NCBI GenBank assembly: GCA_963575745.1
Contig: CAUYUJ010000325.1
Coordinates: 62,001 to 126,000, forward strand
DNA: 64,000 bases
Source of the DNA: Prorocentrum cordatum
Taxonomy: Eukaryota
Direction of reading: 5' to 3'
Part shown: piece by piece, positions 1,710 to 51,870 of the stretch
Layout: each line of letters opens with the position of its first letter
Numbering within the stretch: the first letter of the stretch is position 1
The notes under the pieces: generated by a model
What the model was told of the DNA's origin: nothing
The model's input: only the letters and a program-made list of their open reading frames with translations
Databases searched by the model: none
Position numbers and translations under genes: made by a program

Positions 1710-3339
1710 GCGCTGAGACGGTGTCCGGGAAGGGGCGGGGCAGGGAGGGGCTGCGGTGCCGAAATAAAGTGGGCGGGGCGGAGGGGGCGCTGGGCGAGCG
1801 CTGGAGCCGTGGGGGGCGCTGAGACGTGTGGGGGAGGGGGCGGAGGATGGGGGGGGGTTGTCGGGGCGGAGGGGGCACTGGGCGGGCGCTCGAGCCGCGG
1901 GGGAGCGCTCAGACGGCGCGGGGGAGGCGGCGGGGCGCGGGGGGGGGGGCGGTGCCGAATTAAAGTGGTCGGGGAGGAGGGGGGCACTGGGCGGGCGCTG
2001 GAGCCGCGGGGGGGCGCTGAGACGGCGCGGGGGAGGAGGCGGAGCGGGGGGGGGTGCGGTGCCGAAATAAAATGGTCGAGGCGGAGGGGGCACTGGGCGG
2101 GCGCTGGAGCCGCGGGGGGGCGCTGAGACGGCGCGGGGGCCGGGGCGGAGCGGGGGGGGGTGCGGTGCCGAAATAAAGTGGTCGAAGCGGAGGGGGCACT
2201 GGGCGGGCGCTGGAGCCGTGGGGGGGCGCTGAGACGGCGCGGGGGAGGGGGCGGAGCGGGGGGGGGGGTGCGGTGCCGAAATAAAGTGGTCGTGGCGGAG
2301 GGGGCACTGGGCGGGCGCTGGAGCCGCGCGGGGGCGCTGAGACGGCGCGGGGGAGGGGGCGGAGCGGGGAGGGGGGGTGCGGTGCCGAAATAAAGTGGTC
2401 GGGGCGGAGGAGGCACTGGGCGGGCGCTGGAGCCGCGGGAGGGCGCTGAGACGGCGCGGGGGAGGGGGCGGCGCGGGGGAGGGGGTGCGGTGCCGAAATA
2501 AAGTGGTCGAGGCGGAGGGGGCGCTGGGCGGGCGCTGGAGCCGCGGGGGGGGCGCTGAGACCGGCGCGGGGGAGGGGCGAGCGGGGGGGGGTGCGTTGCC
2601 GCAAATAAAATGGCCGGGGCGGAGGGGGCGCTGGGGCGGGCGCTGGAGCGCGGGGGCGCCTGAGCGGCGCGGGGGGAGGGGGGAGGGGGCGGAGCGGGGG
2701 GGGGGTGCGGTGCGAAATAAATTGGTCGGGGGGAGGGGGCACTGGGCGGGCGCTGGAGCCGCGCGGGGGCGCTGAGACGGCGCGGGGGAGGGGGCGGAGG
2801 GGGGGGGGTGCGGTGCCGAAATAAAGTGGTCGGGGCGGAGGGGGCACTGGGCGGGCGCTGGAGCCGCGCGGGGGCGCTGAGACGGCGCGGGGGAGGGGGC
2901 GGAGCGGGGAGGGGGGGTGCGGTGCCGAAATAAAGTGGTCGTGGCGGAGGGGGCACTGGGCGGGCGCTGGAGCCGCGCGGGGGCGCTGAGACGGCGCGGG
3001 GGAGGGGGCGGAGCGGGGAGGGGGGTGCGGTGCCGAAATAAAGTGGTCGGGGCGGAGGAGGCACTGGGCGGGCGCTGGAGCCGCGGGGGGGCGCTGAGAC
3101 GGCGCGGGGGAGGGGGCGGAGCGGGGGGGGGGTGCGGTGCCGAAATAAAGTGGTCGAGGCGGAGGGGGCACTGGGCGGGCGCTGGAGCCGCGGGGGGGCG
3201 CTGAGACGGCGCGGGGGAGGGGGCGGAGCGGGGGGGGGTGCGGTGCCGAAATAAAGTGGTCGGGGCGGAGGGGGCACTGGGCGGGCGCTGGGGCCGCGGG
3301 AGGGCGCTGAGACGGAGGGGGCGCATGATGATGATGATG

Positions 3340-7611: not shown

Positions 7612-9025
7612 CGTTTACGCTGGCGTCGGTGCTACCGTCGCGCTGGTGTAGGCGCTGACATCGGCGCCGGCGCAGGCGCCCGGCGTCGCTGCACCGTCGA
7701 CTATGGTGTGGGCGACGGCGTGGGGGCCGGAGCTGGCGTCTGTGCTGGCGTCGGTGCTGGCGTCGGCAATGGCGTCGGCAATGGAGCAGGCGCTGGCGCC
7801 GCGTTGGCGTCAGCTTCGGAAGTGGCCTCGGCGCTGGGCGCAGCGCCGGTGTAGGCGCTGGCGCCAGCGCTGGCGTCGGCGCCAGCGTTTAACGCCAGCG
7901 ATGGCGCTGGTTTCGGTGCTGGCGTCGGCGCTGGTGCAGGAGCTGTCATGGGTGCTGGCGTAAGCGCCAGCGGTGATGCTGGTGTCGGTGCTAGCGTCGG
8001 CGCCGGCATAGGCCCTGGCGTTGGGGCTGTCGTAGGTGCAGGCGTAGACGCTTGTGTCCGTGCCGGCGAAAACGCTTGCGTCAGTGCTGGTGTCAAGGCT
8101 GGCGTCGGCGCAGGTGTAGGCGATGGCGCTGGCGCCCGCGAAGGCGCTGGCGTCGGCGCTCGCGTCGGCGCGGGCGTAGGCGCTGGCGTTGGCGCTGGCG
8201 TTAGTGCCAGCGTCAAGGCCGGCGCGCAGCGCGCGCCGACGTAGACGCAGACGCAGGTTCTGGCGCCAATGCCAGCGTGGGCGCAGGCTATGGCCGTCAG
8301 TGCCAGCGCATGCGCGGGCGCCCGTGCCGGCGTCGTCGCTGGCGTCGGCGCCGGCATTCGCGACGGCGTCCGCGCTGCCGTCGGGGCTGGCGACGTGGGG
8401 CGCGAGCGTCGGCGATGGCGCGCGCGCCGGCGCAGGCGCCGGTGTCAGCGCAAGCGCCAGCGCCGGCGCTGGCGCCGGTGATGGCGTCGACGCCGACGCA
8501 GACGACGGCGCGCTCAGGCGCTGGGGCGCTCGTCGGCGCCGGCGCCAGCGCCAGCGCAGACGCCTGCTTTTGTGCCGGCGAAGATGCCGACGTTAGCGCT
8601 GGTGTCAATGCTGGCGTCGGCGCCCGCCCGCAGGCGCAAGCGTCGGCGCCAGCGTCGGCGCTGGCGTCGGCGCAGAAGTTGGCGCCGGCAACGACGCTGA
8701 CACCCGCGATGGCGTTGGCGCTGGCGCAAACGCCGGCGCTGGCGCAGGCGGTGAATCCGGCGTCGGCGCTTCTGTCGGCGACCTATAGGCGACGGCGTTG
8801 GTTTCGGCGTCGGTGGCGCGGGCGCCAGCGGGGGCCCCGGCGCCGGGCCCAGCGCCGGCGCCGCCGCGAACAAAGGCGACGGCGCTTGCTGGGCGCAGGG
8901 GCGCAGGCGCAGGCGTAGATGCTGGCGTCGGAGATGGCGTCGGCGCTGGAGTAAACGCCGGCGTTGGCGCTGGCTTCGGCGCCGTCGTCGGCGCTGGCGC
9001 AGGCGCAGGCGGTCGCGTCGGCGTT
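7612..9025 (+). repeat. Degenerate (GGCGYY)n hexamer repeat, left part, split by the 11.6-kb transposon
   Basis: GGCGCT/GGCGTC/GGCGCC runs give Gly-Ala-Val pseudo-ORFs; the repeat resumes in register at 20672. Confidence 0.9.
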
Positions 9026-9095
9026 CTGAGATCCTCTTCAATGCGTCTCAGACGCGTTGATTTTAAATCAACGAATCAACGTACATGTGGCATGC
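9026..9095 (+). repeat. Left terminal inverted repeat
   Basis: CTGAGATCCTCTTCAATGCGTCTCAGACGCGTTGATT... matches the reverse complement of 20602-20671. Confidence 0.85.
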
Positions 9096-9352
9096 ACACA
9101 TTGTAGATAGTGTACACTGCCGTGTGCCACCATGAAGTTGCACATGCACGCATCATGCATTGAGTTGCGTTTGCATTGCATCTAAAAAAAGGAAGTGGAG
9201 GGGAAGGAGGAGGAGGAGGAGAAGGAGGAGAAGGAGGAGGAGGAAAAGGATGAGGAGAGTGAGGAGGAGGAGAGAGGAGGGAGGAGGGAGGAGGCGGCGG
9301 GAGGAGGCAGGTGATCGAAGCGCAGCGGGGACGACTCGCCTGCAGACCCTGC

Positions 9353-9396
9353 ATTGCGATGTTCAGAGGTCCTATAGGACCTCTGAACATCGCAAT
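9353..9396. repeat. Perfect 44-bp palindrome
   Basis: ATTGCGATGTTCAGAGGTCCTA|TAGGACCTCTGAACATCGCAAT. Confidence 0.95.
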
Positions 9397-9690
9397 TCAG
9401 TCATTGTGGCTTGCGCTGGGTCCTTGTGAACCGTGGAATTCGCCCCTTTGTGCTTCCCCCCTGCCTCTGGGTCCGAGAGCACCTGGAAGCCTCCCGTCGC
9501 CCCCTCTCAGTGCGCTGGGGCGTCTTGTTGCTTTGCGTAAGATGACACGATGGTCGGGCACTCCTCGGCCCCCCACATCCCGCCCCAATTTCACGCGAAG
9601 GGGGGCGCTTGAAATCCTGGCTTTCGCTCCGCAGCCGATTTGTGTCGAGAGCCCGCGGATCCATAGAGGCTTCGACCCCGCGGGCCATTT

Positions 9691-10626
9691 ATGGCCGCTT
9701 CCGTGGAACCAGATGGGCCGAGCGGCCCACCAGAGCAATGGCAGTCCTTGCAGAGATCCAAGCGCGTCAAGTGGTCAGTGGATGCCGTGTTTGATTTCGC
9801 ACAGGCGATTTGGACAGGTCTCTCCAAGCATGCCAAAGAAAAAGTTCGGTCGGGCGACTTCAAGGGCCATGTATTTCATTTGGATCGGACATCGGGAGCC
9901 GCCCCGAACACGAAAGACCTTGAGAGAAATTTCAGTCTATTGCAAGCCGTACTTAAGAAGTGGCTCGGTGACCTGTCGGAATGTTTCTGGGCCGACGTGT
10001 TCTTGATGGTGGACTCCGTGTTCGCCGACGGGATGCTGTTCCGGCGCGAGATCGGCAAGGCCGCCGAGGCGGTGCAGACGGCCAAGGACTTGAAGGCGTG
10101 CATCACGTGCTTGAAGAACCTGCGCAGGAACAGCTCGAAATCTAAAGGCCAACGGAGCTTGAACCATGGCAGGGGGAAGAGGGGAGCGAGGAGGAGGAGG
10201 ATGAGGAGAAGGATGAGGACGAGGAGGAGGATGAGGAGGAGGAGGAGGAGGAGACGCGACGGAGGACCTCGAGGAGAAGTAGCAGCATAAGGATGGCGGG
10301 GATGACGGAGAGGACGAGGGGAAGGGGGAGGAGGAGGCCAAGAAGGAGGATGAGGAAGCCGCAGTGGGGCAAGGGGGAGGTTGAGGAAGGAGGAGGTGAG
10401 CTCCATGTAGTTGCCCGTCGTTCGCAGGGGGTGCTCGAGGTGGGCGAGCCCGCAGAGCCCACGCGCGGGCCCATGGAAAGAGTAGCATTTCTGCGTCTTG
10501 GCATCGGGCTTTGTTTGCAAATAAAGCCCGATACCACAACGAAGAAATCATTGAAACATCCCCCTCCCCCAAAAAATACAACCGGTCGCCGACCGACAGC
10601 CCCTTGGGCGAGCAGGGAGAGAGAGA

Positions 10627-10662
<36 letters not shown>

Positions 10663-11968
10663 AAGACATAGAGAGAGGGAGGGAGAGGATGTATCTATAT
10701 ATATATATATATATGAATTTATATATGTATACTAGAACCACGCGCGCGCTTCGCGCGCGCTTAGGTTCTGTCGAGTCACAGACCCAGGAATCGTTGTGAG
10801 AAGAAATTGGTGACGCGAAGCGTCGTGGGGGCGTCCTTGGACGTCTGGGGTCTCCTGGGGCCTCTTGAGGGGCCTCCTGGGGGCCTCCTGGCGGCCTCTT
10901 GGGGCGGAAGGCTCGAGCTTGCGGTTCGTGGTCCCCCTCTGGGCCCCCTCTTGGGCCCGTCTTGGGGCCCTCTTGGGCCATCTTGGGCGCCTCTTGGGCC
11001 GTCTTGGGGCCCTCTTGGGCTGTCCTGGGGCCCTCTTGGAAGCTTCTTGGGCCGTCTTGGGGCGGTCTTGGGCGCCTCTTGGGCCGTCCTGTAACGTCGG
11101 AAAGCCCCAAAGACAACTTTGTTGAAAATGTACGTTTTACGAAGGGAATGGGTCAATTTTTGCGTCTAGGGGCCCTCTTGGGACGCATGTTGGAGGCTTC
11201 TTGGGGCCTCTTGGGGGCGTCCTTGGACGTCTGGGGTCTCCTGGGGCCTCTTGAGGGGCCTCCTGGGGGCCTCCTGGCGGCCTCTTGGGGCGGAAGGCTC
11301 GAGCTTGCGGTTCGTGGTCCCCCTCTGGGCCCCCTCTTGGGCCCGTCTTGGGGCCCTCTTGGGCCATCTTGGGCGCCTCTTGGGCCGTCTTGGGGCCCTC
11401 TTGGGCTGTCCTGGGGCCCTCTTGGAAGCTTCTTGGGCCGTCTTGGGGCGGTCTTGGGCGCCTCTTGGGCCGTCCTGTAACGTCGGAAAGCCCAAAAGGC
11501 AACTTTGTTGAAAATGTACGTTTTACGAAGGGAATGGGCAATTTTTTGCGTCTAGGGGCCCTCTTGGGACGCATGTTGGAGGCTTCTTGGGGCCTCTTGG
11601 GGCGTCCTTGGACGTCTGGAGGCCATCTTCAGCATCTCGGAGCCCTCTTGGAGGCCTCTTGGAAGTTTCTTGGGCCGTCTTGGGCGCTCCTGGGGCCGCG
11701 TCTGACCGGGGAGCCTCCGGCAAGCCCGACGAGCCTCGGGCCCCGGAGCCCACATTTGTGGTCGAGGTGGAGGCCATCTTCAGCATCTCGGAGCCCTCTT
11801 GGAGGCCTCTTGGAAGTTTCTTGGGCCGTCTTGGGCGCTCCTGGGGCCGTTTTGTCTGACCGGGGAGGCCTCCGGCAAGCCCCGACGAGCCTCCGGGCCC
11901 CCCGGAGCCCACATTTGCGGTCGAGGTCCCGGCCCCGGGCCCCCGGACCCGTGTGTATATATAATGTG

Positions 11969-12007
<39 letters not shown>

Positions 12008-12036
12008 GAGAGAGAGAGAGAGAGAGAGACAAAACA

Positions 12037-12077
<41 letters not shown>

Positions 12078-14401
12078 ACCGAGTCGGCCCGCAGGCAGCG
12101 ACAAGGTCACCGAGCTCAAGCAACTGTTGATTGTGGCGACGCTGCCTGAGAGCTCAAGTCGGTTCTCTGACGGCGGCGGCATGAATGGCTATTTCCCCAA
12201 GAGCAAGGCCGAGCAGCCCGAGCAGCTCGAGGGGGAGGCGGCCATCGCTCTCGATGATCTGGGCGAGGAGCCCGCCGAGCAGGATGCCGATGAGAAAGAT
12301 GCATCTGATGAGTCTGGCATGTGCACCGAGGAGGAGGACGCGCACAGCGAGGAGGAGGGTGCGTGCAGCGAGGAGGTGAACGGCGAGCTCCCTGCTGGCG
12401 ACGTCGACGCGGGCAGTCTTGTCGACGTCGACGCGGGCAGCCTTGGCGACGTCGACGCGGGCAGCCTTGTCGACGACGGCGCGGCCATCGTGCTGCCCGA
12501 CGACGGCGAGGACATCCACGGGGAGAGCATCGGCACTCTTTGGGACGAGGAGCTGGTGATCCCTGGCGAAGATGGCATGGCCGAGGCTGGTGGCTTGCTC
12601 ATGGAGGGTTCCATCGGCGAGAGCTTGTCCAAGATGGAGGCTGACGGCGCGCGGCAGTTGTCGAAGAAGGACTCGGCCGAAGCCGACCCCATGGAACAGC
12701 TGGCGATCTTGGAGAACGAGGCCGAGAGCCAGCAGCACGACATCGCCGATGGCAACATCGCGGAGGAGCTGGAGATCAATGCCAAGCCCATCGTGCACGC
12801 TGATGTGGCGGTCGTCGGCAAGAAGAAGAAGAAGAAGCCAAAGAAAGCGGGCCCCAGGAAGAAATCCAAACCGATGAAGACGAAGAAGAAGAAGAAGAAC
12901 ATCCCCAAGTGCGACGCACATGTCATGGATCGGGACGACTCGGACGTCAAGAACACGGACACCCCGCAGAGGAACGAGAAGAAGGCTGCGCTTCGCAAGA
13001 ATGCCGACGACGCCGAGGAGACCCCCGACAAGATGAGCGAGACTGGCCCCACGCAGCCAATCAAGAATGAAAAAGAAGAAGCAGACTGAGGAGATGGAGT
13101 TCATCATCCCTGAGATGCCAGACGGGCCAGACGACGTCGCAGCTGCAAGCGCATACATGGACTGGAACCTCAAGGAGATGGGCATCCCAACCAAGGCATG
13201 GCCCAACCTATCTACTGGCAAGGGCGCCAACTCGTACACCGCGACGGTCGACGGCTTAAGGGTCTCGGTGATCTTGAACAAGATGGCGTACTTCACGGTC
13301 TGCAACAAGCTGACCTACGGCTGGAGCACCTACGGTGGACCCGAGGATACCTCGGGCCAAGTATCGTTTGAACCAGCATTGGCAGATGGGAGGAGGAGGA
13401 GGAGGAGGAGGAGGAGGAAGAGGAGGAGGAGGAGCAGCAGGAAGAGGAGGAGCAAGGATGAAGGAATGTTGGAGAGGATTGCGAGAAAGAGGACGACGAG
13501 GACGAGAAGCAGGATGGGGGAGGAGGAAAAGGAGAAGGAGGAGGCGAGGAAATAAAGAGGTCATTGGATCCCAGGGGGCGAAAAGAGGGAGGCGGAGGAA
13601 GAAAAAGGAGAAGAGGGAGGCGAGGGGGGAGAGGGAGGACGAGGAGGTCTCATCATCCACACATTCCCCTTCACCGCCTCCCCCGTCTGATGTGGCCCCC
13701 GTCTGATGTGGGCCGTCTGATGTGGCCCTGAAGTGTTGGGCTTCTGCGAGCTCCTCCTCCTCCTCCTCTTCCTCCCCCTCCTCCTCCTCCTCCTCCCCTT
13801 TCCTTCCTCCTCCTCCTCCTCCTCCCTCCTCCTCCTCCTCGTCGTCCTCCTCCTCCTCCTCCTCATCCTCCCCCTCCTCCCCGCCCCTCTGTCCCTCCTC
13901 GCCGTACCTCCTTCCTCCCCTCTCCCATTCTCTCCCCGCGCGTCTTTCAGTGCCTCGTCCTTCCACCTCATCCTTCTCCTACTCGTCTTCTTCATCCCCA
14001 TTTCCCTCCCCCCATCTCCCTCCTCCTCCTCCTCCTCCTCCTCCTCCTCTTTCCCTTCCACTTCCTCCCGTTTCCAAACGCTCCTCAACATCATGTTCCC
14101 CCTCTTCCTCCTTCTCCTCCTCCTCCTCCTCCTCCTCATCCCCCTTCCTCTCGTCGTCCTGATCCTCCTTCATTTCCCGTTTGCAACTCTCTCCGAGGCG
14201 GCGCTCGAGACGGCCACCGACGGCTGCAAGGGCGGGAACTCGCCTATAGGCACCTATAGGCTTGCGCACGAGACACTCGTGCTGGGGATCGAGCTCGAGA
14301 GCTCGCTTCAGACAAAAAAAAAAAACACACGCACGGAACCGACATTTGCAAGACTTCCCCGACAAAATCAACAGGTTACGGGCGCACAAATCAACAGGTA
14401 A
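9691..14401 (+). CDS. Transposon gene A, spliced: join(9691-10147, 12095-13345, 14198-14401), one frameshift near 13066. N-terminal helical domain, long acidic and Lys-rich linker, small C-terminal domain possibly AP2-like
   Basis: GC-AG intron 10148-12094 joins SKSKG|SDKVTELKQLL in frame. GA-AG intron 13346-14197 (CCGAG|G at both ends) joins WSTYGGPE|AALETA. The AP2-like call is inference from the NSYTATVDGLRVSVILNKMAYF..YGWSTYGGPEAALETA pattern. Confidence 0.65.
10732..11955 (-). mobile_element. Non-autonomous Helitron-like insert made of CCTCTTGGG-rich repeats, inside intron 1 of gene A
   Basis: Minus strand ends GCGCGCGC-GAA-GCGCGCGC hairpin, then GTGGTT, CTAG|T. Flanked on both sides by (TA)n then (GA)n. 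Internal 386-bp tandem duplication. 5' end not resolved. Confidence 0.6.
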
Positions 14402-14726
14402 CAGGCACCCAATCAACAGGTAAAAGGCAGGTAATCAACAGGTAAAAGGCGGTAACAACCAGTAAACGGCAGCCTCCAGAACGGCCGCGCCCGAAAGATG
14501 AGGGGATTAATGGAGGGAAGAAGAAGGAGGAGGAGGAGGAGGAGGGGGCTAAGGAGGAGGAGGAGAAGGAAGAGGAGGAGCGACCTGCAGGCAATTGAAG
14601 GAGGAAGAGTATGGCAGAGAGGAAATATAGGAGAAAGAGAGGAGGAATTGGAGGGAGGGAGGAGGAAGGGCAAGGAAAAGATGAGGAAGACAGGAGGACG
14701 AGAGGAGTTAAAGGAGGGAGGGGGAG

Positions 14727-15720
14727 AGAGAGAGAGACACTCCCGCGGACGCGGGTCGCCGCCTCGGCGGCCGCCGCGCCGAGCGCCCGCGGGTCGCAGG
14801 CACTCAGCACCATCTCGTCGCCCAGCGCCACGCGGAGGACGAACGCGTGAGGCAATCTGAGGGTGCCCCCAACTCCTGGACCAGTCCACGTGGATGACCC
14901 AGTGCGCGCGGTATGGATGCATCTGCACGCTAGCTCGCGCCACGGCGTCGCACCGCGGCACCAGCGGCCCTGCCGCTGCCCTGCCGCCCTGCGGCCCGCC
15001 CCGCTGCCGCCCTGCCGCCATGCCCCCCCTTGCCCTTGCCCTTGAGCGCGAGCTCGCGGAAGCGGTCGAGCAGGAGCTGGAACTCCTCGGGGTCGTTCGG
15101 GATGTCGTCCCGCGCCAGGGTCAGGCCGAAGCTCGGGCCCAGGGCCGCGAGCTCATCGCGGAGCGCCTCGGCTCTCTCCATGGTGTAGTCCTCGTACTCG
15201 TCGCTCTTGCCCAAGTCCTTGTCCTTGTCCTTGCCCTTGCTCCGACCTGTGCTGTTCGGCGGGCGGCCCCGCTGCACGGGCAGCTCGTCCGCCCAGGCGT
15301 CGTCCAGCATCATGGGCTCGGCCGACGCTGCTGCCCCCTCCGCCGCGTCGTCCACCATCAAACCCTCCTCGACCGTCTCCGTCTTGCTCCCATCGCCCGC
15401 CCTCGCACCACGCCCACGCGGGCGGCGCCGCCGCCGAGGGGCAGCGGGGGGCGCATCCCCCGCCGGCTGTGGCGGGGCGGGCGCACGGGGCGTCGCCAGC
15501 GCGGCGACCGCCGTCCGGAGAAGGCCCTCGGCGGCGCGGATGAGGCGCACCGCCTCCCGCTGGCCGCCCGCCAGCCCAGCAGCCGCGTGCGTCGCCAGGA
15601 CCGCGCCGCGCGCGGCCTCCAGCATCGCCCTCGCGGCGCGGGCGTCCTGCGCACCCTGCATCGGCCGGGCGGCGGGCCGACGGCCCCGCGGCGGCTGACC
15701 TGAGCAAAGATGGCACTGGA
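14727..15720 (-). mobile_element. SL-capped retroposed insert nested in the transposon
   Basis: 5' end TCCAGTGCCATCTTTGCTCAGG (16/22 to DinoSL) at 15699-15720. (TC)n 3' tail. GGGAGGGGGAG duplicated at 14716-14726 and 15721-15731, in a purine-rich context. Confidence 0.65.
14930..15661 (-). CDS. Intronless 243-aa Ala/Arg/Gly-rich hypothetical protein of the SL-capped insert
   Basis: ATG about 38 nt after the SL relic; open frame MQGAQDARAARAMLEAARGAVL..AVRLIRAAEGLLRTAVAAL..LDDAWADE. Confidence 0.6.
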   Translation of the reverse strand: MQGAQDARAARAMLEAARGAVLATHAAAGLAGGQREAVRLIRAAEGLLRTAVAALATPRAPAPPQPAGDAPPAAPRRRRRPRGRGARAGDGSKTETVEEGLMVDDAAEGAAASAEPMMLDDAWADELPVQRGRPPNSTGRSKGKDKDKDLGKSDEYEDYTMERAEALRDELAALGPSFGLTLARDDIPNDPEEFQLLLDRFRELALKGKGKGGHGGRAAAGRAAGRQGSGRAAGAAVRRRGAS

Positions 15721-16230
15721 GGGAGGGGGAGGGAGGGAGAAGGACGAGAGGAGGAAGAGAAGACGTAAAAGGTCCCCTATAGACATGCCTAAAGGTCACC
15801 TAAAAAGGTCCCTGTGTGAAGTTCCCATATGGTCGCCCCGTCCCTCCGTCAAGATTCTGCAGGATTGCGTAAGATGCGCATTTTCTTCAGGGCGTTCCAC
15901 GATTTCCAGGCGAATTGAGAAACAATTCCCGGATGTTTTGTTTTGTTGTTTTTTGTGTGTGTATTTTTTCGTTTTTTCAAGATTTTCACACATTGTCGCA
16001 AATGTCGGCCCACACATCAACAGGGAATAGGCCGGTAATCAACCGGTAAGTGGCGGTAACCACCGGTAATTGGCAGATCAGTGCTCCCGCTAACCTTTTG
16101 CGTGGTCCGTCGCCTGATTTTGGCTCACGTTCGTGGCAGCTCGCGCCCGCCAGGCTAGCAGATGCGCCATCCTCGCTGTCCCACGGCATGCCGCACCTGA
16201 AGAAGAAGAAAAAAACGTGAGCTCAAGAAC

Positions 16231-17221
16231 ATGTCGAGTCCTGAAGTTCCTCATGGGGAGCTCGAGGTTGCGAAGCAGCCAGCAGCCTCGTCCACAGACC
16301 TCAACGCCTGGAAGCGCTTCATCAGGCTGACGAAGAACCGCAAGCGCTTCCCCCTCGAGCTTCGGGACGACCTCGAGAATGACAGGAACGCGCTCTTCAA
16401 CAAGTACCTCGAGATCGGCGAAGACATCAACTTGGTCCTTACGCTGAAGAAAAGGGCCAGCCGTCTGCAGGAGACGACTACAGGGTGGACGTACGCAAAG
16501 GAGCGCGACCTCGTCGGGCCGCCGTGGAACCTACCAGTCAAGAAAAATTAAGGAGCTGATCAAGAAGAGCAAGTGGGTCTACGACCCCGATTTCCCGAAC
16601 GACGACGAGGAGAAGATGTACTGGGTGAGGGAGAGGGTCAGCATGTCGGACAAGAGGAAGATCGAGGCGGAGATCGAGCTGTCGGGCTCGAAGAAGCTCA
16701 AGGCTGACGAGGCGCAGAGTCTCCTGGACGATGGCGCGATCTTCGGTGCTGACACCAGCGTTTCCACCGCTCTCATGGCCGACGACGACATGGACGCAGT
16801 CCTGAAGGAGACCGTCCAAGCGAAGAAGCGCAAGAAGAAGACCACCTCACCCCAGGGCCTGCCAGGTGCAGCTGTTGAGACCACGACGAAGGAGCTGGGT
16901 GCCGCCACCATGGCGACTGTCATGAAGGAGAAGACCGAGGTCCGCCAGTTCCAGTTGAAGATCAAGGGGTCCACAGCTCCCTACGCAAAATATATGTGCA
17001 AAACGTTGGTGCAGTTCAATGAGAAGCAGGATGGGCTCTATGCCATCTTCACGGGAGCTACCAAGGGCGAGGGTAAGGACGCAGACATCACACGGGCCAT
17101 CAACGTCAGCAAGGCGAGGACAGCTTGGTTCGACCAGAACGTTCGGAAGCTCGCCCGCTCGTTGGCGTCGTCCCAGGTGCCTGGCGGCAAGAAGAGCAAG
17201 CCGATCAAGGACTCGGCTTGA
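16231..17221 (+). CDS. Transposon gene B, hypothetical protein of about 330 aa, with one frameshift in an A-run near 16545
   Basis: Strongly coding-like composition. ORF 16231-16551 continues as KIKELIKKSKWVYDPDFPNDDEEKMYWV into ORF 16616-17221 if one A is removed. Confidence 0.7.
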
Positions 17222-17590
17222 GTTTCGGGGGGCGGCAGGCCATGCAGCAACGAGCTGGCATGGAAGCAAGCCGCGCATGCACAGCATGATGGGGGCCTTG
17301 AAAACACACACAGAACAAAGCAACAGTTCAAACATGAACGCCCACAAACAAATGCGCCCAGAAACCGAAAACAATGCCACCATTAACGAACGCGAAACCG
17401 AACACTAAAAGCAAACACGAACCACGTCATCCATAAAACAAAGCATCAGAAGTCAACGCATAACATTCGAGCCCACAAGAGTCCAGTAACAAAACAACAG
17501 TAGCCCGTGCACTTAGGCCCCATACAACAACAACGACAACAGACGCCCAACAATAACATTCAATCACCCGTAGCCCACTTAGGCCCAAAC

Positions 17591-19618
17591 ATGCTTCAGA
17601 AGGAACACCGAGCGCCGTCAGGTGCTCTCAAACGTGGCGTCAGTCTTCGATCTCTCGTCCAGGGGGGGCATGCAGACAGTCAGGCGTCAGCTAAACGTGC
17701 CAAGGCGAACTCGGACAATCTAGTTGCCCAGAACGCCGTGAACTTACTATCCCACGGAGTTCGCCTGAGCGACATCAAACGAGTTTGCAAAACGCATGTT
17801 GGTACCTCTGGCGCTTATTCTGATCAACTTGCTTCGAAGTGCGCAGGCATCGGCGGTGCCAGTTCAAAGAACATCGAGCGATATTCCCACCTGTTCATGC
17901 ACAAAGTTTTCCCTGACGTTCACATCGAGCCGTATGTTATCAAGTTGCCACTTCTGACGGCTCACAGCTCAACGAAATGGTCATGGCAGTGGTACCCCAC
18001 CTTCATGCTCCATGAGATGCTGGAGTTCATCAGCGCTGGAGGCACCATCCAAGAACATGCCAGTCTTATAGGTACTGGCGGAGCCGAGTCTGTGCGCTCC
18101 TTCTGGTGCCACGCTAACCAATGCGAAGGCCTCGTCGATCTCTGCATGCATACCGATGGGCATCCGATTCCTCTCATCAACCATTACGACGGGGTTGTCA
18201 TGTTTCGAAACACGGAGATTGACGTTGTATCGTTTTCATCGGTCATGGTGCACGACAAAGGAATTTCGATATTCGACAAGAAGTTCCCGCTGTGCATTCT
18301 GAAGCACAAGGCCGTGCCCGACATCCTTGCGAAGTCCATGGCGTTCGAGCAGGAAGTGTTGCTATCAAGTAAGCATCCATGCGAGGGCTTTTACGGTGAG
18401 GCCCTCAAGCGAGCGCACACTGCCAAGCCGCTGGGCGTTCGCGCTTGTCTGCTGGGGTGGCACGGCGACTTCAAGGCGAGAAAAGAGTGTCATTGCATGC
18501 CGTGGTACTACCGCACAAAAAGCATTTGTGACCTCTGCGAAGCCCAGCATACGTCAGCCAAAGCTGACCCCACGATGACCGTCAGAGATGTTCGGTCGAC
18601 GGCGAAATGGCGAGATACCGTTTACACGCTGGGACAGCTCAACAGTATGGTGCCGTCACCGTGGTTTAAGATCAGAGGCTTCAGCCATGCGCGAATTTTC
18701 ATGGACGAGATGCATCTTCTCTGGCTGGGGATCTGCCAGATCATCGTTGCAAACGTGACCATTCATTGGCTCGATGGGGGTCAGCTTCGCGAATGGGCCA
18801 AGGCTCGGGCGTGAGAGCGTCCAAGACTGGGGGGGGGGGAGGGACGGATGGGGGACGGCAATATGAGGCGGGCCAGCGAGGGAAGGCGGTGGGACCAGCG
18901 AGCGGAAGGTTGAGGAGGGGTGGGAGGACCAAGGAGGAGAGCGGGAAGATTTGTTTCGGCCCCAAAGGCTCGTGGCAATGATGATCCGTTGGGTGAGCGA
19001 TGGCTTGACTTCAGGGCGTTCGCTGATGCACGCGGCCTGCAACTTAGTTCGTTTTGTTTTTTTTTCACGCTCCGCCATTCGGGCAGAGGCGACGGCAAGA
19101 GGAACCACCCCGAAGTGACCTCGATGGTTTCAGCCGAGAGCGTGAAAGCTTGCGTGATCTACTTAGCTCATGTTGCACACCAAATTGAAACAACCTCGTT
19201 CGAGTGTAAAGTAATTCGGTTGGTGTTGCGGAGCTTGTACAGCATGCTTAGGCCGATGGATTCGTCCCCCGTGTGGCTCCCCAGTGACACCCGCAGGGCG
19301 CTTCAGCGTTTTGTTCGCACAGTGCTTCTAGGCTGCCAACACATGTCGTATTGGGCTCTGTCGAATGATGCCGTGGCTTGGGATCTAAGGCCGAAGCACC
19401 ACTACCTAGATCACGCTGCCACCAACCTAGACGTGTCACCTCTGAACTGGAATGTAACTGCATGCTGGGATTCCGAGAAGTGGCTGGGCAAACTGAAAAT
19501 GTTTGGCAACGCAACGCACTCTGCAAAGGCCGTGGGCCTAAGGGGCTTACAGAGATACGTTGCATTCCTGAAAGTGCGGTTTAAGAATAGGGGTACGTTC
19601 AACAAACCAGATATCTAA
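17591..19618 (+). CDS. CMC-superfamily-like DDE transposase, join(17591-18802, 18968-19618)
   Basis: Motifs in the expected order: PLINHYDG (D), WHGDFKAR (D), CDLC, MDEMHLLWLG, RPKHHYLDH, CWDSEKWLGKLK (E). A 165-bp GC-AG intron with AAG|GCTCG at both ends removes the stop at 18812-18814 and keeps the frame. Confidence 0.8.
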
Positions 19619-20601
19619 CTGCAATCGCTGCAGCTCTGTTGCATCAGAAAATAAAAGCGAGGGGGAAGCGACGAGCGAGGGGGGAGAGGAAGGGGAGGCG
19701 TGGGAGGGGAGGGAGGGCAGAGGAGGGAGGGGAGGGAAGGGCCGAGGAGAGAGAAGGGGAGAGGGCAGAGGGGAGGAGGAACGGGGGAGAGTGCACGGAA
19801 AGAGCGAGGGCAAGCAAGCGCAGCAAGAGGGAACGAGCCCCCCGCCGCCCCCCCCGCCGCCGCCCCGCTTACGTCGGGATCACCTTCACTGCGAAGGCTG
19901 CGGGCTGCCCGACTTCTCTGCTGTCCTCCCCCCCCCCCCCCCCCTCTCCCACCTCTCCTCCCTCCTCCTCCTCCACCTCCTCCTCCTCCTCCTGCTCCTC
20001 CTCCTCTTCCTCCTCCTTCTCCTCCTGTTCCTCCTCCTGCTCATGCCTCCTCCTCCTGTTTCTCCTCCTCCCTCCTCCTCCTCCTCCTCCTCCTTCCTCC
20101 TCCCTCCTCCTCCTCCTCCTCCTCCCCTCCTCCCTCTCGTCTTTTTCCTTCTCCTCGTTTTGCTCCCTCCTCCTCCTCCTCTTTCTCCTCCTCCTCCTCC
20201 TCCTCCTCCTCCTCCTCCATGTGTTTCCGCGCCTCGTTCCTCTGCCTCCTCCTCCTCCTTCCTTTCGCTTCCTCCCGTTCGAAATAAAGAAGGAAGTTCA
20301 GAATGTCAGTTTCTTTCAAACGTTCCTCCTCCCCCCTTTCCTCCTCCTCCTTTTTCTCCTTTTCCTCCTCCTCCTCCTCCTCCTCCTCCTCCTCCCTCCT
20401 CTCGCCCTCCTCCTCCTTCCCTTCCTCCTCCTCCTCTGCCTTGCCTTACAACTAAATTAGTAGATATCTATTTGTATATATAATAGTATTACCATTTTCT
20501 TGTTATTCGTCTGCTTCTTGTGTTTTTTTTGCCGCGGCCCAGCCCGAAAGGGCAGGAGGGCGCTCGCGCGCGACGGATCGCACGATTTTTGGCAACATAT
20601 G

Positions 20602-20671
20602 GTAAGCCAAAAATGCGTTGATTTATAATCGACGAATCAACGCGGCCCAGACGCATCGATGAGGATCTCAG
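20602..20671 (-). repeat. Right terminal inverted repeat
   Basis: ...AATCAACGCGGCCCAGACGCATCGATGAGGATCTCAG. Confidence 0.85.
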
Positions 20672-21030
20672 TTGGCACCGCCGTTGCTGGTGGCGCCCGC
20701 GCTGGCGTAGGCCCCGACGTCGGGGCCGTCGTCGGCGCTGGCGTCGGAGCAGGAGCAGGCTCTTGCGCTCGCGCAGTCTCCCGCGCTGGCGTGCGTGCTG
20801 GCGTAGGCGCCAGTGTTGGCGATGCCGTCGGTGCAAGCGTAGGCGCACGCGTTAGTGCCGGCGCCAGTGCCATGGCTGGCGCAGGCGTAAGTGCCAGGTT
20901 TGGTGCTGGCATCGACGCGAGCGTCGGCGCTGGCGGAAGCGCTGGCGGTGCCGTGGTCGGCATTGTCGTGGGAACTGCGCTCGACTCGTTCTGGGCTGCC
21001 GCGGGCACTGACAGTGGCGTCGCCGTCGAC
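20672..21030 (+). repeat. (GGCGYY)n repeat, right part
   Basis: Same hexamer repeat and orientation as 7612-9025. Confidence 0.85.
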
Positions 21031-21771
21031 GCCCTCAGGACTTGCCGAAAATGGTGGCATCTGCTAGGCGTCAGGAGTCGCACCTCGCGACATCGCCAAT
21101 CCAGCCGGCTGCCTCCGCGGTTGCCGGCATCGGCATTGGAAGCGAACCTGGGAGCGGGGCGGGCGCGGGAGTTGGAGTCGGACCTGGCGTCGGAAACGGA
21201 GTTCAAGCACGTGCTGAAGTCGTGCCCGGACACCTTGAATGCTGGATGGTTAAAACGCGCGCTGGGCGGGGGGGGCAGGGTTTGCCCGCCCTGTCCGTCT
21301 CAAAACACGACGCGCTAGGAAGTGGCAGAACATTTGGAAGCTTAGATTTCAGCAGAAACCTACGCATCTATTCTGGGGATGCCAGCCCATCCTCGGCAGC
21401 TCGTGGGATTCGTCGTGCTGCTGATGGCATCCGTCGTGCTGCTGCTGCTGCTTCGCGCTGTTCCTGGCGCCCGTCGTGCTACTCGTGGCGCCCGTCGCGC
21501 TGCTCCTCGTGCCGGCCGCGGTGCCCATGATATCCGTCGCGCTTGTGGCATTGCTCGCGCAGCTCGTGATATCTGTCGCGCTGATAGAAATATCCACCCT
21601 GCTGCTCACGGTAGCCGTCGTGATGCGCCTGGCACTCGCAACGTAGCTCATGGCGTGCGTCTCCGTCGCCAGGGGCGCTGCGGCGCTGCGCCCGAAGCTC
21701 ATGTCGGAGCTGTGGGCTTGTCGTTCAGCGTGTCGTCATGCTCCACTGTCGCGCTGCGCCGCGCGCAGAGC

Positions 21772-22375
21772 AAGTGGCACGTGCGCCATGGCTCTTGCGC
21801 AAAAAGGAAGGGGGAGGAGGGGGGGGGGGGGGGCGGAATGGGGGGGGGGGAAGGGGGCAAGACATCGCCCCTCGGGGCCAACAGCGTGGCCCGGATCCCA
21901 GATGGGGGGGGGGGAGGTGGCGCGCGTCGCGACGCGGAATAAAGTGCTCGGAGCGGAGGGGGCACGGGGCGGAGGTCCCACTGGGGCGCTGGGGGCGCGG
22001 AGAGGAGGGGGGGAGGCGGTGTTCGTCGCGACGCGGAATAAAGTGGTCGGGGCGGAAAGGCACGGGGCGGGGGTCCCACTGGGGCGCTGGGGCGCAGGGG
22101 CGCGGGGGGAAGGGGGGGGGGGTGTGCGTCGCGACGCGGAATAAAATAGCCGGAGGGCCACGGGCGCCCACCGGGGCGCTGGGGGCGGGGTGGGGAGGCG
22201 GCGCGCGTCGCGACGCGGAATAGAATGCTCGGGGCGGAGGTGGCACGGGGCGGAGATCCCACTGGGGCGCTGGGGACGCGGGGCGGCTCGGGGCAGAGGG
22301 TCACGGGGCGGGGGTTCCACTGGGGCGGCGGGGGCGCGGCGGGGAGGGGGAGGCGGCGCGCGTCGCGACGCGGAA
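21772..22375 (+). repeat. Leader plus G-rich tandem array (about 5 units) related to 1481-3422
   Basis: AAGTGGCACGTG(C/T)GCCATGGCTCTTGC(G/A)CAAAAAGGAAGGGG is shared with 1481-1522. Units contain the palindrome CGCGTCGCGACGCG plus GAATAAAGTG. Confidence 0.85.
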
Positions 22376-26599: not shown

Positions 26600-29500
26600 C
26601 ACGTATTCGCACGAGAGCCTCGACGAAGACATGGATCGTCGGCGCCCCTGGATACATGTGTTGCTCCCCCCTTCGCTGTTTGCCTCAATCGTCGCCTCCG
26701 GCACCAGGGCCAGCACCAAGACGGCCCCGCGTCCCCCCTGCGAGACTCCAAGATGATCCCAAGTCTGATGGGTGGCCCTGGACTTCTGGGCTTTCGGTCC
26801 CAAAAAGCCCCACTCAGTTTCCCAATGTCGGCGGCCCGACCACTTCGAATCGGCTCCAGTACAGTCGATCCGCTTCGAAAGCGCCTGCAGGCCTCGCTCA
26901 AACGCTGTACGGTACGTAGTTCTTCGCCAATGAAGGCCGAGCAGATGCGCCGTACGATTCCCAGGTCGGGGATCGACGACGCCTCGATGGACGCCAACGC
27001 GGTACGGTGCACCCAGGTCGTCCAGGGATCCTAGACGAGCCCACGACATCCCGGGAGGCCTCCGAGTCCCCGGGGGGTCTGCAGGGAGGCCTCCAGCGAG
27101 GCCCAGGGCGGCCAAGGCAAGACAGCTACGGACGTTCTGTGCACGTGCTTCTTCAGACACTGCGGGGAGGCTTCAGAAGGCTCCGACCGTCGGAGGTCCG
27201 AGCGGATTTTCTCGGATCGGCGTCTGGGCGTCGCTGCCAGCGGGGCCCAGGCGCCGATCCGAGAAATCCGAGCAGACCTCCGAAAGCTTATGTTTATACC
27301 GCTTTCCTCCTTCGACAGCCACAACACGGCACCAAGACGGTCACAACAAGGCACCAAGACAGCCCTCCCCAAAGAAAACAAGACGGCCCGCCTCGAGAAG
27401 ACTGCCCCGAGATCCGCCGAGAAGACCCCGGCCCTGAGATGCTTCGACCGAGTTGTTTCGGGAGAGCGGGGGGGAACACTCGCGCCCAAATCCCAAGACG
27501 GCCCCGAGATCCTCAAGAGGCTCCCAAGGGATCCCTAAAATAATCACTAGGCACTGGGGCATAAACATAAAAGTTCCAGGGTCCGCGTGGATTGCCGGAT
27601 CTGCGCTGAATCCCCCTCCCCGGCGCGCGGAGTGCGCCAGGGGCGGCGCCCGAGGCGCCGCCAGAGGGGGGCCCAGCGCTGATCAAAGAAATCCGCGCGG
27701 AACCCCGAAAGCTTACTTTTGGTATTCCTTACTTGATCCATGCAACACCCACCAAGGATGCCTCCATGCGAAGCGATGCGATGCGACCACCGTTGCGGAC
27801 AGCGTCCGGGCCTAGAGCAGACCAGGTGGGTGAGGCCATGGCCTCTAGGATCTGATGTGTCAGGACTCATGCAGTGCGAGACATGCTAGAAATTAGAAGG
27901 AAAGGGGGAGGAGGAGGAAACAACAAGTCCTTGGTGTCGGTGTCGGCGCGGGTTGGGCGAGACGTCTCGACGTTCGCAAAGATTCTACGTCATTGGTCTG
28001 AGTCCCAAGTGCTGGTCGACATGAGGTCGGTGAAGTGGTGCTCGAGCGCTGTCCATGCTTCGGTGTCCTGGGCTGTTTGCGTCCATGTGGGCGAGCAACG
28101 ACATATGTACATGTACGCCCTCCGCGGTCTTGCCTGCACGAACGTCCGCGTTGACACGCACTCCGGGGGAAACTAACCGCGTACGTGTACATATGTTGCT
28201 GGCCTCTGACCATGTGATGTCGTTCGGTTGTCCTTTCGAATGGAATTGCGTGGGCGGTCGGTGGAAGTCTGGTCTGCGTTGACGCAAGTAGGTCGTACCA
28301 GCTCTTGTTTTGGCCACCGTGTTGCCTGTGTCCCCGCTGGCGCGGGTTGAAGACTGGGTGCCAACGCAGCACTCGCCATGTCCACCTCGTCCAGCCGTGG
28401 TTTGCGACTCGTGAAGCCATGCGCCAGACTTTCCCTTTGTGCAGCGTCTCCCAGGTGTCAATGTGGTGGAACTTCATGAGGTGCCCTGCGCGTCGTGTCG
28501 CTCGTTGGGTGTAGTCGACCCATGGTTCCATTTCGTCTGCGGTGGTGCTGTCTTCGCCGTCTTCGCTGTGCTTGTCGGGCGTGTCAGGTGCATCACACTG
28601 TGATGGGTTGCTGTCTGCGTCGTCGCTAATGCTGTTGGCGCGGTCTTCGTGGTTTTGTGCTTCGTTGTTCGCGCCGTCGATCTGGACGCCCGACATGGGT
28701 ACGGAGAGAATGGGTACAATGCCCAACAGCAGTTCCTGTTCATTTGAACAGGACTCGCTGTCCGCGCCGCCGCAGCCTGTGTCCATTCGAAACAGAAGGC
28801 TGCCTGCCAAACAGCGGCCGCTGTTGGTTTGGGGCAACATTTGTTGTTGGGCATTGTACCCATTCTTTCGGTACCCATTCCGGGCGTCCAAAGTCGAGAC
28901 CAGGTCCCTGGCCGTCGTGAGGGTCGTTTTTTTTTGTTGTGCGTCTCCGCGGCGTTCTGATGATCATGCGAAGCATGCGTCGTTGTGTCCGTCGTAGATG
29001 CTGCCGTAGAGACTCCGTGAGGGTCCACGTCTCTGCTCCGTATAACGCTGTAGGTGCTACAGTGCTGTTGAAAAGTCGACGTCGGTGAGCCAGTGGGTAG
29101 CGTTTGCTGGTCAGCTCCTGCTTGCGAGACGCGAATGATGCCCAGGCACCTCGCGCGCGGTGGTGGGTTTTCGATTTCATCGGTTCGTGGAAGCTGATCA
29201 AGTGGCCGAGGTATTTTATACTGCCCTCGTATGGAACGATGTCTACATCAATGTCTTGGAAACGTGCTGTGCGTGAGCTCGCCCTTCCGGTCCTTCTCGT
29301 CTGGTTGCTCAATATTTTGGTTTTGCTTGAGTGTAGTTCGAGCCCGCGTAGCCTCGTCGCGCGCGCAATGTCGTCAAGCATCGCTGTCAGGCGCGGGGGA
29401 GTTTGGCTGGTCAGGAGCACGTCGTCGGCGAAGCGCAGGTTGGTCAGCGCGGCGGTGCTCGCGGATCCCAATTCAACTCCCTTCCTTTTTTGCTGATGTT

Positions 29501-50249: not shown

Positions 50250-51870
50250 TTCAGTTCGTGTCGTCCGCGCTTTGATGGTTGACGGCGCATCGCAAACGCT
50301 TGTCCTCTAAGCCCTGCCAGGTGTAGCTATCGTGCGCCAGCGCAAACCACCATTCGCAGCCAGTATCATCGGGGAGTCTCTTGTTGTTGTCAATCATATC
50401 CGAGGTGCCCAAAAATGTGACGACCTCGTTGTCCCAACGCTTCCTCGGTCCGCCTTGTTTTCGTTGTGCGGGTCTTCTGTCGCGCAGAGGAGGCCGCCGA
50501 GCGGCGGCGGGAAAATTGGCAACCCGCTTGGCCCATCTCCACTTTGCATTAAAGTCGTGCGAAGCCCAATCCTCGACTTTCGCGCGTCTGGCATGGGCAT
50601 CGGCTGTGTGCGTCGCTCGTCGGATGAAGTCCACCCATGGCTCTAATCCGTCGTTGCTGTTGGTGTCGCCGTCGTTGCTGCTGGTATAGCCGTCGTCGTC
50701 GTCGTCGTCGCTGTCGCTGCTTTTACTGCTTCCGTCGTTGCCAAAGTCGTCGTTCTCAGTGCTGTCGTCATTGTCTGGGTTGCTTTCGGCGAAGTCTCCG
50801 TCAAGCTCTGCGCACTATGCTCCATCTCCCTCCTCCAGTTGGCCGCTGCTAAGTTGGAGGTCTTTCTCATCGTCGTTCCAATGATTCCCTCGCGCGCCTC
50901 GTCTGCCAATCCCCACGATGATTCGGACCACCTTCCGCTGCGCACGCTGTAGTAATGTAAGCGCGTCTTTGGTTAGAGCCCACGAGCTGCATCCGTACAT
51001 GACACTGGGCGTTACGGTCCCACTGAAGAGGCATAGGCGACTTGCGCGAGGGTAGCGTTTGCATGTCAATTCGTGTCTCAAATGGTTGAATCGGCGTCAA
51101 CCCGACGCGATTCTGGCGTCGAGCTCCGCGATGTGGAATTCATGGTGTGTAAGATCCCTGCCCAATTACTTCGTGCTCCGCGTTGCGCCCACAATCTCGA
51201 CGCTATCACCTTCGATGTTATGGAATGGCCTTGGTAGGTCTGCCTTGTCGCTGGGTGACGTTGGACCGTACTTTCGTCTTGTCTGGGTTTAACTCGAGGC
51301 CGCATTGAGGTCGCGCAGTGAGAATTTCAGTTGACGCAAATTTGGCGCACACAAAATAAAACGTCGTCTGCAAAACGGAAGTTGGTGAGGAGGGTGTCTG
51401 CGGTGAAACCCATATGTATGCCAAGCTGTTTGTTGCGCCATGTGTCCTTCATGCGTCGGAATTTGCTTGTAAGTAGTGCGCTGGAAAATAGGGAGCTCAG
51501 TGGGTCTCCTGGTTTCACACCTCGCTGGATGTTGAAGTGTCTGCTCGTGCTGTCCGTCCGTACTGTAGCGGTCTGGTCGGTGTAGAATTGTTTGAGGAGG
51601 TGTATGTAGGATGCCGGCGCCTGCTGCTCTCTGAGTGAGTCCCATAGTGTGTTGTGGTTGACACAGTCGAATGCTTTCTTAAAGTTAACCGCCGCTACCC
51701 AGAGTGGTACATGCCATTCTTCAAACTGGTTGTGCAGGAGAGCCGGCGTTGTGAATAAGTGGTCGTCGGTGCTGTAGCCGTGTCTGAAGCCTGCTTGGTC
51801 TACGCTTTGTTGCTTGTCTAACAGTGGACCCAATCGCTTGTACAGGAGTCGAGACATAAGCTTGTCCAGG
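50250..51870 (-). mobile_element. 5'-truncated, decayed RTE-like LINE (RT and C-terminus)
   Basis: QAGFRHGYSTDDHLF, VNFKKAFDCVNH, RGVKPGDPLS, NFRFADDV, VMYGCSSW, KWRWAKRVA; frameshifted. Confidence 0.92.

Follow-up and report, generated by a model that had tools for sequence, protein, structure and literature searches.

The stretch of DNA considered here is a 64-kb window (64,000 nucleotides; contig CAUYUJ010000325.1, positions 62,001 to 126,000 of the forward strand, assembly GCA_963575745.1) from the dinoflagellate Prorocentrum cordatum, and all positions given below are counted from its first letter. At 9026-20671 it contains an element of 11,646 bp, delimited by terminal inverted repeats (TIRs) and carrying several open reading frames (ORFs), with the 3'-most gene encoding a predicted transposase of 620 amino acids. 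The left TIR (9026..9062, plus strand) and the right TIR (20635..20671, minus strand) are each 37 bp in length, and 32 of these 37 positions are identical when the left end is compared with the reverse complement of the right end. The first 11 positions match exactly, and this 11-mer, CTGAGATCCTC, with which the left TIR begins, occurs at 9026-9036 (+) and 20661-20671 (-), these being the sole two exact copies in the window. The terminal pair of the element is CTGAGATCCTC..GAGGATCTCAG, and its termini read CTGAG..CTCAG; at the left junction host GGCGTCGGCGTT gives way to CTGAGATCCTCTTCAATGCGTCT, and at the right junction AGACGCATCGATGAGGATCTCAG gives way to TTGGCACCGCC. Three further 11-mers with a single mismatch (at 23737, 27504 and 56817) were considered as solo ends and rejected as chance occurrences, as they show no likeness to the termini outside the 11-mer itself.

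Each end of the element abuts a TT dinucleotide, one copy preceding the left end (9024..9025) and the other trailing the right end (20672..20673), consistent with a target site duplication (TSD) of 2 bp. The host flank is composed of a degenerate GCNGGC hexamer repeat, and following excision of the element together with one TT, every GGCG motif falls into hexamer phase 2 (14/14 in 8900-9025 and 15/15 in 20674-20960, giving 29/29). The length of the element, 11,646 bp, is divisible by six, so that the loss of phase in the present sequence is due to the extra 2 bp, and duplication lengths other than 2 modulo 6 would spoil the restored phase. Consequently, the restoration of phase on excision with 2 bp backs a 2-bp duplication independently of the identity of the two TT copies, with the TSD length resting on a single insertion. 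Base composition also differs sharply between the element (59.1% GC) and the 2-kb flanks (71.1% and 70.1%). As a side observation, the host hexamer array (7618-9025 and 20674-20960) is open in several frames, and on the minus strand it would encode an Ala/Ser/Asp/Gly-rich repeat that runs from an ATG near 21050; a repeat-protein gene may have been interrupted by the element.

Just inside the termini lies a set of short repeats. The 8-mer CGTTGATT forms a cluster of three exact matches at the left end (9055-9062 +, 9066-9073 - and 9074-9081 -), and two exact matches at the right end (20616-20623 + and 20635-20642 -), such that all five exact copies in the window are situated no more than 60 bp from the ends of the element. 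A total of five copies, irrespective of location, was reached in 4 of 100 shuffled sequences. We infer that these 8-mers are candidate transposase-binding sites. Furthermore, the window contains 15 occurrences of the core AATCAAC where approximately 4 would be expected, 11 of them inside the element.

The features described above bear on the most basic alternative, that the locus is not mobile at all and represents a block of host genes with short inverted repeats lying by chance on either side. The element was seen as a single copy, in keeping with such a block: neither a protein query nor a 21-base TIR pattern recovered further copies in metagenome contigs, nor were any found in prokaryote genome contigs (protein query and TIR pattern) or viral contigs (protein query). 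However, the 37-bp inverted match falls exactly at a break in a phased hexamer repeat, the phase of which returns on removal of the element plus 2 bp, the step in GC content is sharp, the 8-mers are confined to both ends, and the locus encodes a protein with a transposase signature, from a multi-copy family that is large and highly diverged. We consequently regard a non-mobile block as extremely improbable. An earlier sequence-only reading of this DNA had proposed inverted termini of neither the CACTA nor the CAC type, a TT duplication, and restoration of the host hexamer repeat upon removal, all of which are upheld here. The same reading described the element as complete, which is accurate in the structural sense that both ends and the TSD are present, and in no sense beyond this.

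The transposase gene is read on the plus strand, from open frames at 17504-18811 and 18914-19615 that share the same frame and are separated by two TGA stops. Removal of a segment of 165 nt (18803-18967) produces a frame of 620 amino acids that begins at the ATG at 17591 and contains no internal stop. When aligned with 14 full-length relatives, the two window ORFs together span the whole length of the family, with a gap solely between '...REWAKA' and 'RGNDD...', and close relatives begin at the position equivalent to the ATG at 17591. On the basis of this family alignment, 18803..18967 (plus strand) is predicted to be a spliced GC-AG intron, in frame and G-rich. It would separate exon 1 (17591..18802, +), encoding amino acids 1-404, from exon 2 (18968..19618, +), encoding amino acids 405-620 and the stop. 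The first exon includes D200 (18188-18190), D293 (18467-18469), C313/C316 (18527-18538, +) and D372/H375 (18704-18715, +), and the second includes K547 and H549-x3-H553 (19394-19414) together with E574 (19475-19477).

With the exon 1 product (P0001) as query, a full HMMER scan covering 1.84 billion representative proteins recovered 370 relatives at E<=1e-3, of which 85 reach E<=1e-10 and 5 reach E<=1e-30, with full-length relatives measuring 587-670 amino acids. A word-indexed search with a 41-row profile recovered 1 protein among 8000 scored candidates, with the qualification that searches of this type require shared 5-residue words and that their blanks constitute weak evidence. In a 60-row alignment of this family (in spliced numbering), the candidate catalytic residues are conserved in 58/59 rows for D200, 57/58 for D293 (within G-D-x-K-A-R) and 36/38 for E574. 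Conservation is similarly pronounced at the candidate zinc ligands and associated positions (C313 58/58, C316 55/58, H375 56/58, H549 40/41, H553 36/43), as well as at D372 (57/57), G380 (57/57) and K547 (37/42). Indeed, the D, D and E residues and the CxxC, DxMH and KxH motifs, which the sequence-only reading had singled out in the last gene, prove to be the best-conserved columns of the family. A quick maximum-likelihood tree of the 52 rows of at least 400 amino acids (the 8 shorter rows being left out) depicts a deeply diverged family, with a median tip length of 1.0, in which the window protein occupies a long branch within a supported group of six.

These residues correspond closely to a published signature. 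In the available text of Kojima (PMC12730594), the CMCT clade unites EnSpm/CACTA, Mirage, Chapaev, Transib, Plavaka, ESTA, Lanisha and RAG1, and is characterised by D, D and E together with two cysteines and three histidines, the C(2)C and H(3-4)H motifs being located after the second D and before the E. At the level of sequence, the window protein possesses the full D-D-E plus 2C and 3H set in the order given in that text, with the position of the third histidine assumed. The same part of the source gives a TSD range of 2-5 bp for the clade, within which the 2-bp TT duplication falls, and CA..TG termini for most of its lineages (PMC12730594). A search by language-model features, run with two members of the family, pointed in a similar direction, with Plavaka (PF18759) as the nearest named cluster (0.91, 20 of 30 matches), followed by the RNase H, ZnC2 and ZnH2 clusters of RAG1 (0.86-0.87, ranks 11-13) and by Transposase_21 (0.85).

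Several results weigh against this assignment, and against the reading of the locus that is built upon it. The CTGAG..CTCAG termini are not the CA..TG of most CMCT lineages, and the language-model scores (0.85-0.91, with 109-157 shared features) lie in a range that is graded as a lead only. No transposase-family match to Pfam was obtained for the window ORFs or in 170 scans of family members, which represent 148 different relatives (sets of 22, of 59 relatives plus the window protein at E<=5, and of 89 further relatives, the sets overlapping). NCBIfam matched none of 7 proteins, and queries of the Protein Data Bank (PDB), made both with single sequences and with two profiles, at no point gave RAG1 or Transib, returning only DIS3L2 and ZBTB7A as noise. 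To these may be added the single copy noted above and, for the gene and the element as a whole, the consequences of intron retention and of the frame shifts considered below. The lack of a hidden Markov model (HMM) link to named lineages may be explained by a family too distant for HMM detection, and we consider it likely that the family comprises CMCT-type DDE transposases beyond HMM reach of the named lineages. The earlier description of the element as CMC-like stands with respect to the wider CMCT signature and the 2-bp TSD, but it lacks any Pfam or PDB profile link to CMCT families.

The same body of negative results could instead suggest a TIR transposon with a DDE transposase of another, or a separate, superfamily, in which the CMCT-like signature arose by convergence. 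The absence of an HMM or PDB sequence link to CMCT families, ends that are not CA..TG, and language-model matches below the confident range would all fit such a scenario. However, the order of the eight conserved residues is the published one and their spacing is RAG1-like, and the top three named sets in an unsupervised feature search (Plavaka, RAG1 and Transposase_21) all belong to CMCT. Furthermore, a 2-bp TSD fits CMCT, and it is not that of hAT (8 bp), MULE (9-11 bp), Transib proper (5 bp) or PIF (3 bp). Convergence therefore appears improbable to us. Taking the evidence from the termini, the flank and the protein together, we conclude that 9026-20671 probably represents a single insertion, that of a cut-and-paste DNA transposon (class II, TIR), into a GC-rich locus of hexamer repeats in the genome of a dinoflagellate, and that its 3'-most gene is a 620-amino-acid DDE transposase from a deeply diverged family grouped with CMCT.

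Among named lineages, close parallels exist with Plavaka, a member of the CMCT clade with hosts among fungi and some algae. Besides being the nearest named cluster by language-model features, Plavaka resembles the present family in protein size (approximately 600 amino acids), and the available text of PMC12730594 gives a TSD of 2 bp for PlavakaA and places the C(2)C and H(3-4)H of Plavaka after the second D and before the E. In contrast, no PF18759 match was obtained with the window protein or with any of the 148 scanned relatives, Plavaka ends read TGT..ACA or CATCA..TGATG as opposed to CTGAG..CTCAG, and the host here is a dinoflagellate. Mouse RAG1, as described in the available part of PMC4914335, has its catalytic residues at D600, D708 and E962, and between D708 and E962 a single zinc site formed by C727/C730 and H937/H942. 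The spacing of these residues is closely comparable to that of the window protein: the second D is followed by the first C after 20 residues here and 19 in mouse RAG1, the last H precedes the E by 21 and 20 residues, respectively, and both ligand pairs are located in the insertion that separates the second D from the E (PMC4914335, available part). The histidine pair differs, being H-x3-H here and H-x4-H in RAG1, and neither RAG1 nor Transib was linked to the family by a sequence-profile match to PDB chains; Transib is set apart also by its TSD, which is 5 bp in length, compared to 2 bp here.

Likenesses to CACTA, Mirage and Chapaev are of a more general kind, and comprise a DDE transposase that has CxxC along with D-x-M-H and K-x-H-x3-H boxes, together with a short TSD, which in Mirage is 2 bp. 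We take the D-x-M-H and K-x-H-x3-H boxes to resemble those of plant Tnp2. As in CACTA elements, subterminal short repeats are present and extra ORFs lie upstream of the transposase. However, the duplication is 2 bp (TT) and not the 3 bp of CACTA/EnSpm, PF02992 gives no match, and no TnpA-like protein was recognised. Moreover, the termini are neither CACTA nor CAC..GTG, the latter being described as the hallmark of Chapaev in the available part of PMC4079192.

Upstream of the transposase, the organisation of the element is more complex than the three head-to-tail genes of the sequence-only reading, which we replace with four to five plus-strand ORF sets, the transposase gene included, and an uncertain ORF on the minus strand. 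ORF-1 (9691..10290, +) encodes 199 amino acids and ends in an Arg-rich tail encoded by a GGA tract. ORF-2 (12181..13089, +; 302 amino acids) is of low complexity, acidic at first and then Lys-rich, and it is followed by ORF-2b (13067..13555, +; 162 amino acids), the first 110 amino acids of which are globular-looking, before a tail again encoded by a GGA tract. ORF-2b is either a separate ORF or ORF-2 continued via a 1-nt shift at an A5 run (13070-13074). ORF-4 (16231..17221, +) encodes approximately 329 amino acids if read through a 1-nt shift at a second A5 run (16543-16547); its first part stops at 16549-16551 and its second reaches 17219-17221. The minus-strand ORF (14933..15799, -; 289 amino acids) is Ala/Gly/Arg-rich, with a GC content at third codon positions (GC3) of 0.84, and is possibly a captured fragment. 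In agreement with the earlier statement that the accessory genes cannot be assigned to known families, Pfam gave no match for ORF-1, ORF-2, ORF-2b or ORF-4, and sub-threshold matches only for the minus-strand ORF. Word-indexed searches found no relatives of ORF-4 among 1282 candidates and 1 relative of ORF-1 among 21 candidates, while blastp of five accessory ORF pieces against the 165 proteins gathered here produced a single match, between ORF-1 and the protein P0169, and no fused forms were seen.

Related proteins in other data sets hint at further copies of the element and, perhaps, at its expression. A protein of 114 amino acids in a eukaryote proteome collection is identical to residues 186-299 of the transposase. 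A proteome set that carries the label of a prasinophyte green alga contains both P0007 (70 amino acids), which is 91% identical to the transposase, and P0169 (159 amino acids), which is 94% identical to ORF-1 over 115 amino acids; leaving identical matches aside, these two proteins are the nearest relatives of the transposase and of ORF-1, even though the window itself bears a dinoflagellate spliced-leader relic. P0169 lacks 43 nt that are present in the window, and its tail is in another frame, changing at a G5 run (10172-10176), so that either the ORF-1 copy or the P0169 copy has been altered. The occurrence of relatives of ORF-1 and of the transposase together in a second set, at similar divergence, lends modest support to ORF-1 as a gene of the element and to the existence of diverged copies. 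The green-alga label of this set could reflect a true host with a shared element, carry-over between data sets, or transfer. Cluster look-ups of the relatives returned sources and almost no names. In an index of sequencing runs, no RNA run was listed for this sequence, the best DNA run contained 0.34 of its words and three metagenome runs 0.05-0.07, figures from which we draw no conclusion.

The frame changes in the upstream ORFs count against an intact element, as two of the ORF sets upstream of the transposase lose their frame at A5 runs, and the same holds for the transposase gene should the 165-nt segment be retained, since the protein would then end at residue 407, ahead of the H-x3-H and the E. 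Such observations raise the alternative of a dead composite copy of the same transposon, in which the 165-nt segment is an insertion that disables the gene, decay accounts for the frameshifts of ORF-2/2b and ORF-4, most of the interval from 9.0 to 16 kb is captured or hitch-hiking host DNA, and the transposase is the sole gene of the element. The segment contains two in-frame stops and is flanked on both sides by an 8-bp direct repeat, AAGGCTCG. A tandem repeat with a 386-bp unit (10826..11619, +; 2.1 copies, 98% matches) is made of LGPSWG-type short repeats and resembles host repeats elsewhere in the window, at approximately 36.6 and 49.3 kb, and the GC3 of the minus-strand ORF (0.84) exceeds that of the other ORFs (0.59-0.79). 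In addition, no relatives of ORF-4 were recovered by the word-indexed search, and P0169 differs from ORF-1 by the 43-nt gap and change of frame described above.

Against this, the 165-nt segment begins with GC and ends with AG, with a G following the acceptor, and its removal restores both an exact family alignment and the frame of 620 amino acids. Dinoflagellate gene prediction allows GC and GA donors, according to the available part of PMC10666404. We also considered whether the predicted intron is an introner, and rejected this, as it is without inverted repeats, unlike introners as defined in that part of the same source (PMC10666404). All three frame differences in the upstream ORFs are located within homopolymer runs (G5 at 10172-10176, A5 at 13070-13074 and A5 at 16543-16547). 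Homopolymer runs are the usual place for assembly error, and this placement would fit assembly indels as well as decay. Moreover, relatives of ORF-1 and the transposase that are 91-94% identical occur in one proteome set, the plus-strand ORFs all share one orientation, and the transposase shows no other stop or gap in comparison to its family. A dead composite copy, the main alternative and one that concerns the state of the transposon as opposed to its identity, seems rather unlikely, and we favour an insertion in which the predicted intron is spliced.

Under the favoured interpretation, a mechanism of transposition can be proposed by analogy with CMCT enzymes. The transposase would recognise the 37-bp termini, and probably also the CGTTGATT 8-mers just inside them. 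D200, D293 and E574, as a putative RNase H-like centre, would then cleave the ends, with C313/C316 and H549/H553 forming a predicted zinc module inside the long D293-E574 insertion, as in RAG1. Joining of the element to a target cut with a 2-nt stagger would give rise to the TT duplication. By analogy with TnpA in CACTA elements, the upstream ORFs could act in end recognition or regulation.

The element is of a known kind, being a TIR transposon whose DDE enzyme is RAG1/CACTA-like. It is set apart by its lineage, for which there is no Pfam model and which has CTGAG..CTCAG ends, as well as by the host group and the extra ORFs. A search of the full-text literature, with Repbase and paper supplements outside its scope, found no CACTA-, Plavaka- or Transib-type element described in dinoflagellates. 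Dinoflagellate genomes are huge and repeat-rich, and to our knowledge hardly any autonomous DNA transposon has been described from them with its ends, duplication and genes. It is possible, although we would rate the odds as somewhat short of even, that the element is the first anatomically complete representative (with termini, duplication and gene set) of a distinct RAG1/Plavaka-like lineage that is widespread in marine protist data (370 representative clusters), perhaps still active and perhaps equipped with lineage-specific accessory genes. The suggestion of possible activity stems from the intact frame of 620 amino acids and from fragments of protein, identical or 91-94% identical, that occur in eukaryote proteome sets. 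If its RAG1-like transposase is intact, as it appears to be, the group that gave rise to RAG1 would gain a deep protist branch from this element, a sizeable set of unannotated marine proteins would be explained, and a native candidate vector would become available for organisms in which transformation is very difficult. Should the copy instead be decayed, and the family already be listed in Repbase under another name, the finding would amount to routine repeat annotation.

Further repeats are distributed through the interior of the element. A (GGA)n tract (9197..9307, +) lies 170-280 bp from the left end, and has an inverted counterpart towards the right end in (CTC)n and (TCC)n tracts (19955-20218 and 20324-20436, +). 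In the left subterminal region, between 9349 and 9400, there is a palindrome of 52 bp, unique in the window, with 26-nt arms that are 96% complementary and without a spacer; as single-stranded DNA it is predicted to form a hairpin of -25.5 kcal/mol (z -11.5). A fourfold AATCAACAGGTAA array (14366-14439, +) carries the AATCAAC core, and at its end lies the first copy (14411..14472, +) of a GGTAATCAAC-rich block of approximately 65 bp. The second copy (16027..16078, +) is found 150 bp upstream of ORF-4, with a copy of AATCAAC at 16037. The two blocks form a direct repeat 1.6 kb apart and have the AATCAAC core in common with the subterminal 8-mers, and this block may be an internal binding or promoter module. 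An Rfam scan of 8000-22000 and a transfer RNA scan yielded nothing informative.

The 5' leader of the transposase gene (17500..17590, +) contains two boxes that resemble the dinoflagellate spliced leader, GTAGCCCGTGCACTTAGGCCC at 17500-17520 and CCGTAGCCCACTTAGGCCCAAAC at 17568-17590. The CCGTAGCCCACTTAGGCCCAAAC box ends 1 nt ahead of the ATG, and GTAGCCCGTGCACTTAGGCCC lies 68 nt upstream of it (start to start). In our own alignment to what we take to be the spliced-leader sequence, approximately 18 of 22 positions match, with one gap. The sequence CCGTAGCC has two copies in the window, one in the transposase leader and the other in a true spliced-leader relic. The boxes could represent the decayed relic of a retro-copied transposase messenger RNA (mRNA), or they could be due to chance; a spliced-leader-like box 16 nt ahead of the start codon is a hint that this gene may at one time have been copied by way of a trans-spliced mRNA.

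The true relic is a complete 22-nt match to the spliced leader, in the form we presume it to take, at 32469-32490 (-), directly upstream of an ORF at 31053-32483 (-), and it supports the dinoflagellate setting that had been proposed from the letters alone. This ORF encodes 477 amino acids and has no Pfam match. Genomic copies of the spliced leader mark dinoflagellate retrogenes, according to the available part of PMC6050394, and the ORF is likely to be a retrogene. Elsewhere in the window, two fragments match the reverse transcriptase model RVT_1 (28743-29687, -, E 1.2e-11; 51330-52022, -, E 3.3e-14), and are probably the remains of non-long-terminal-repeat retrotransposons. G-rich tandem repeats are present at 1860-3315 (108 bp x 13.5) and at 21905-22339 (approximately 99 bp x 4), both with AATAAAGTG-type boxes. 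Taken with the two reverse transcriptase fragments, the many G-rich tandem repeats indicate that the neighbourhood of the element is repeat-rich.

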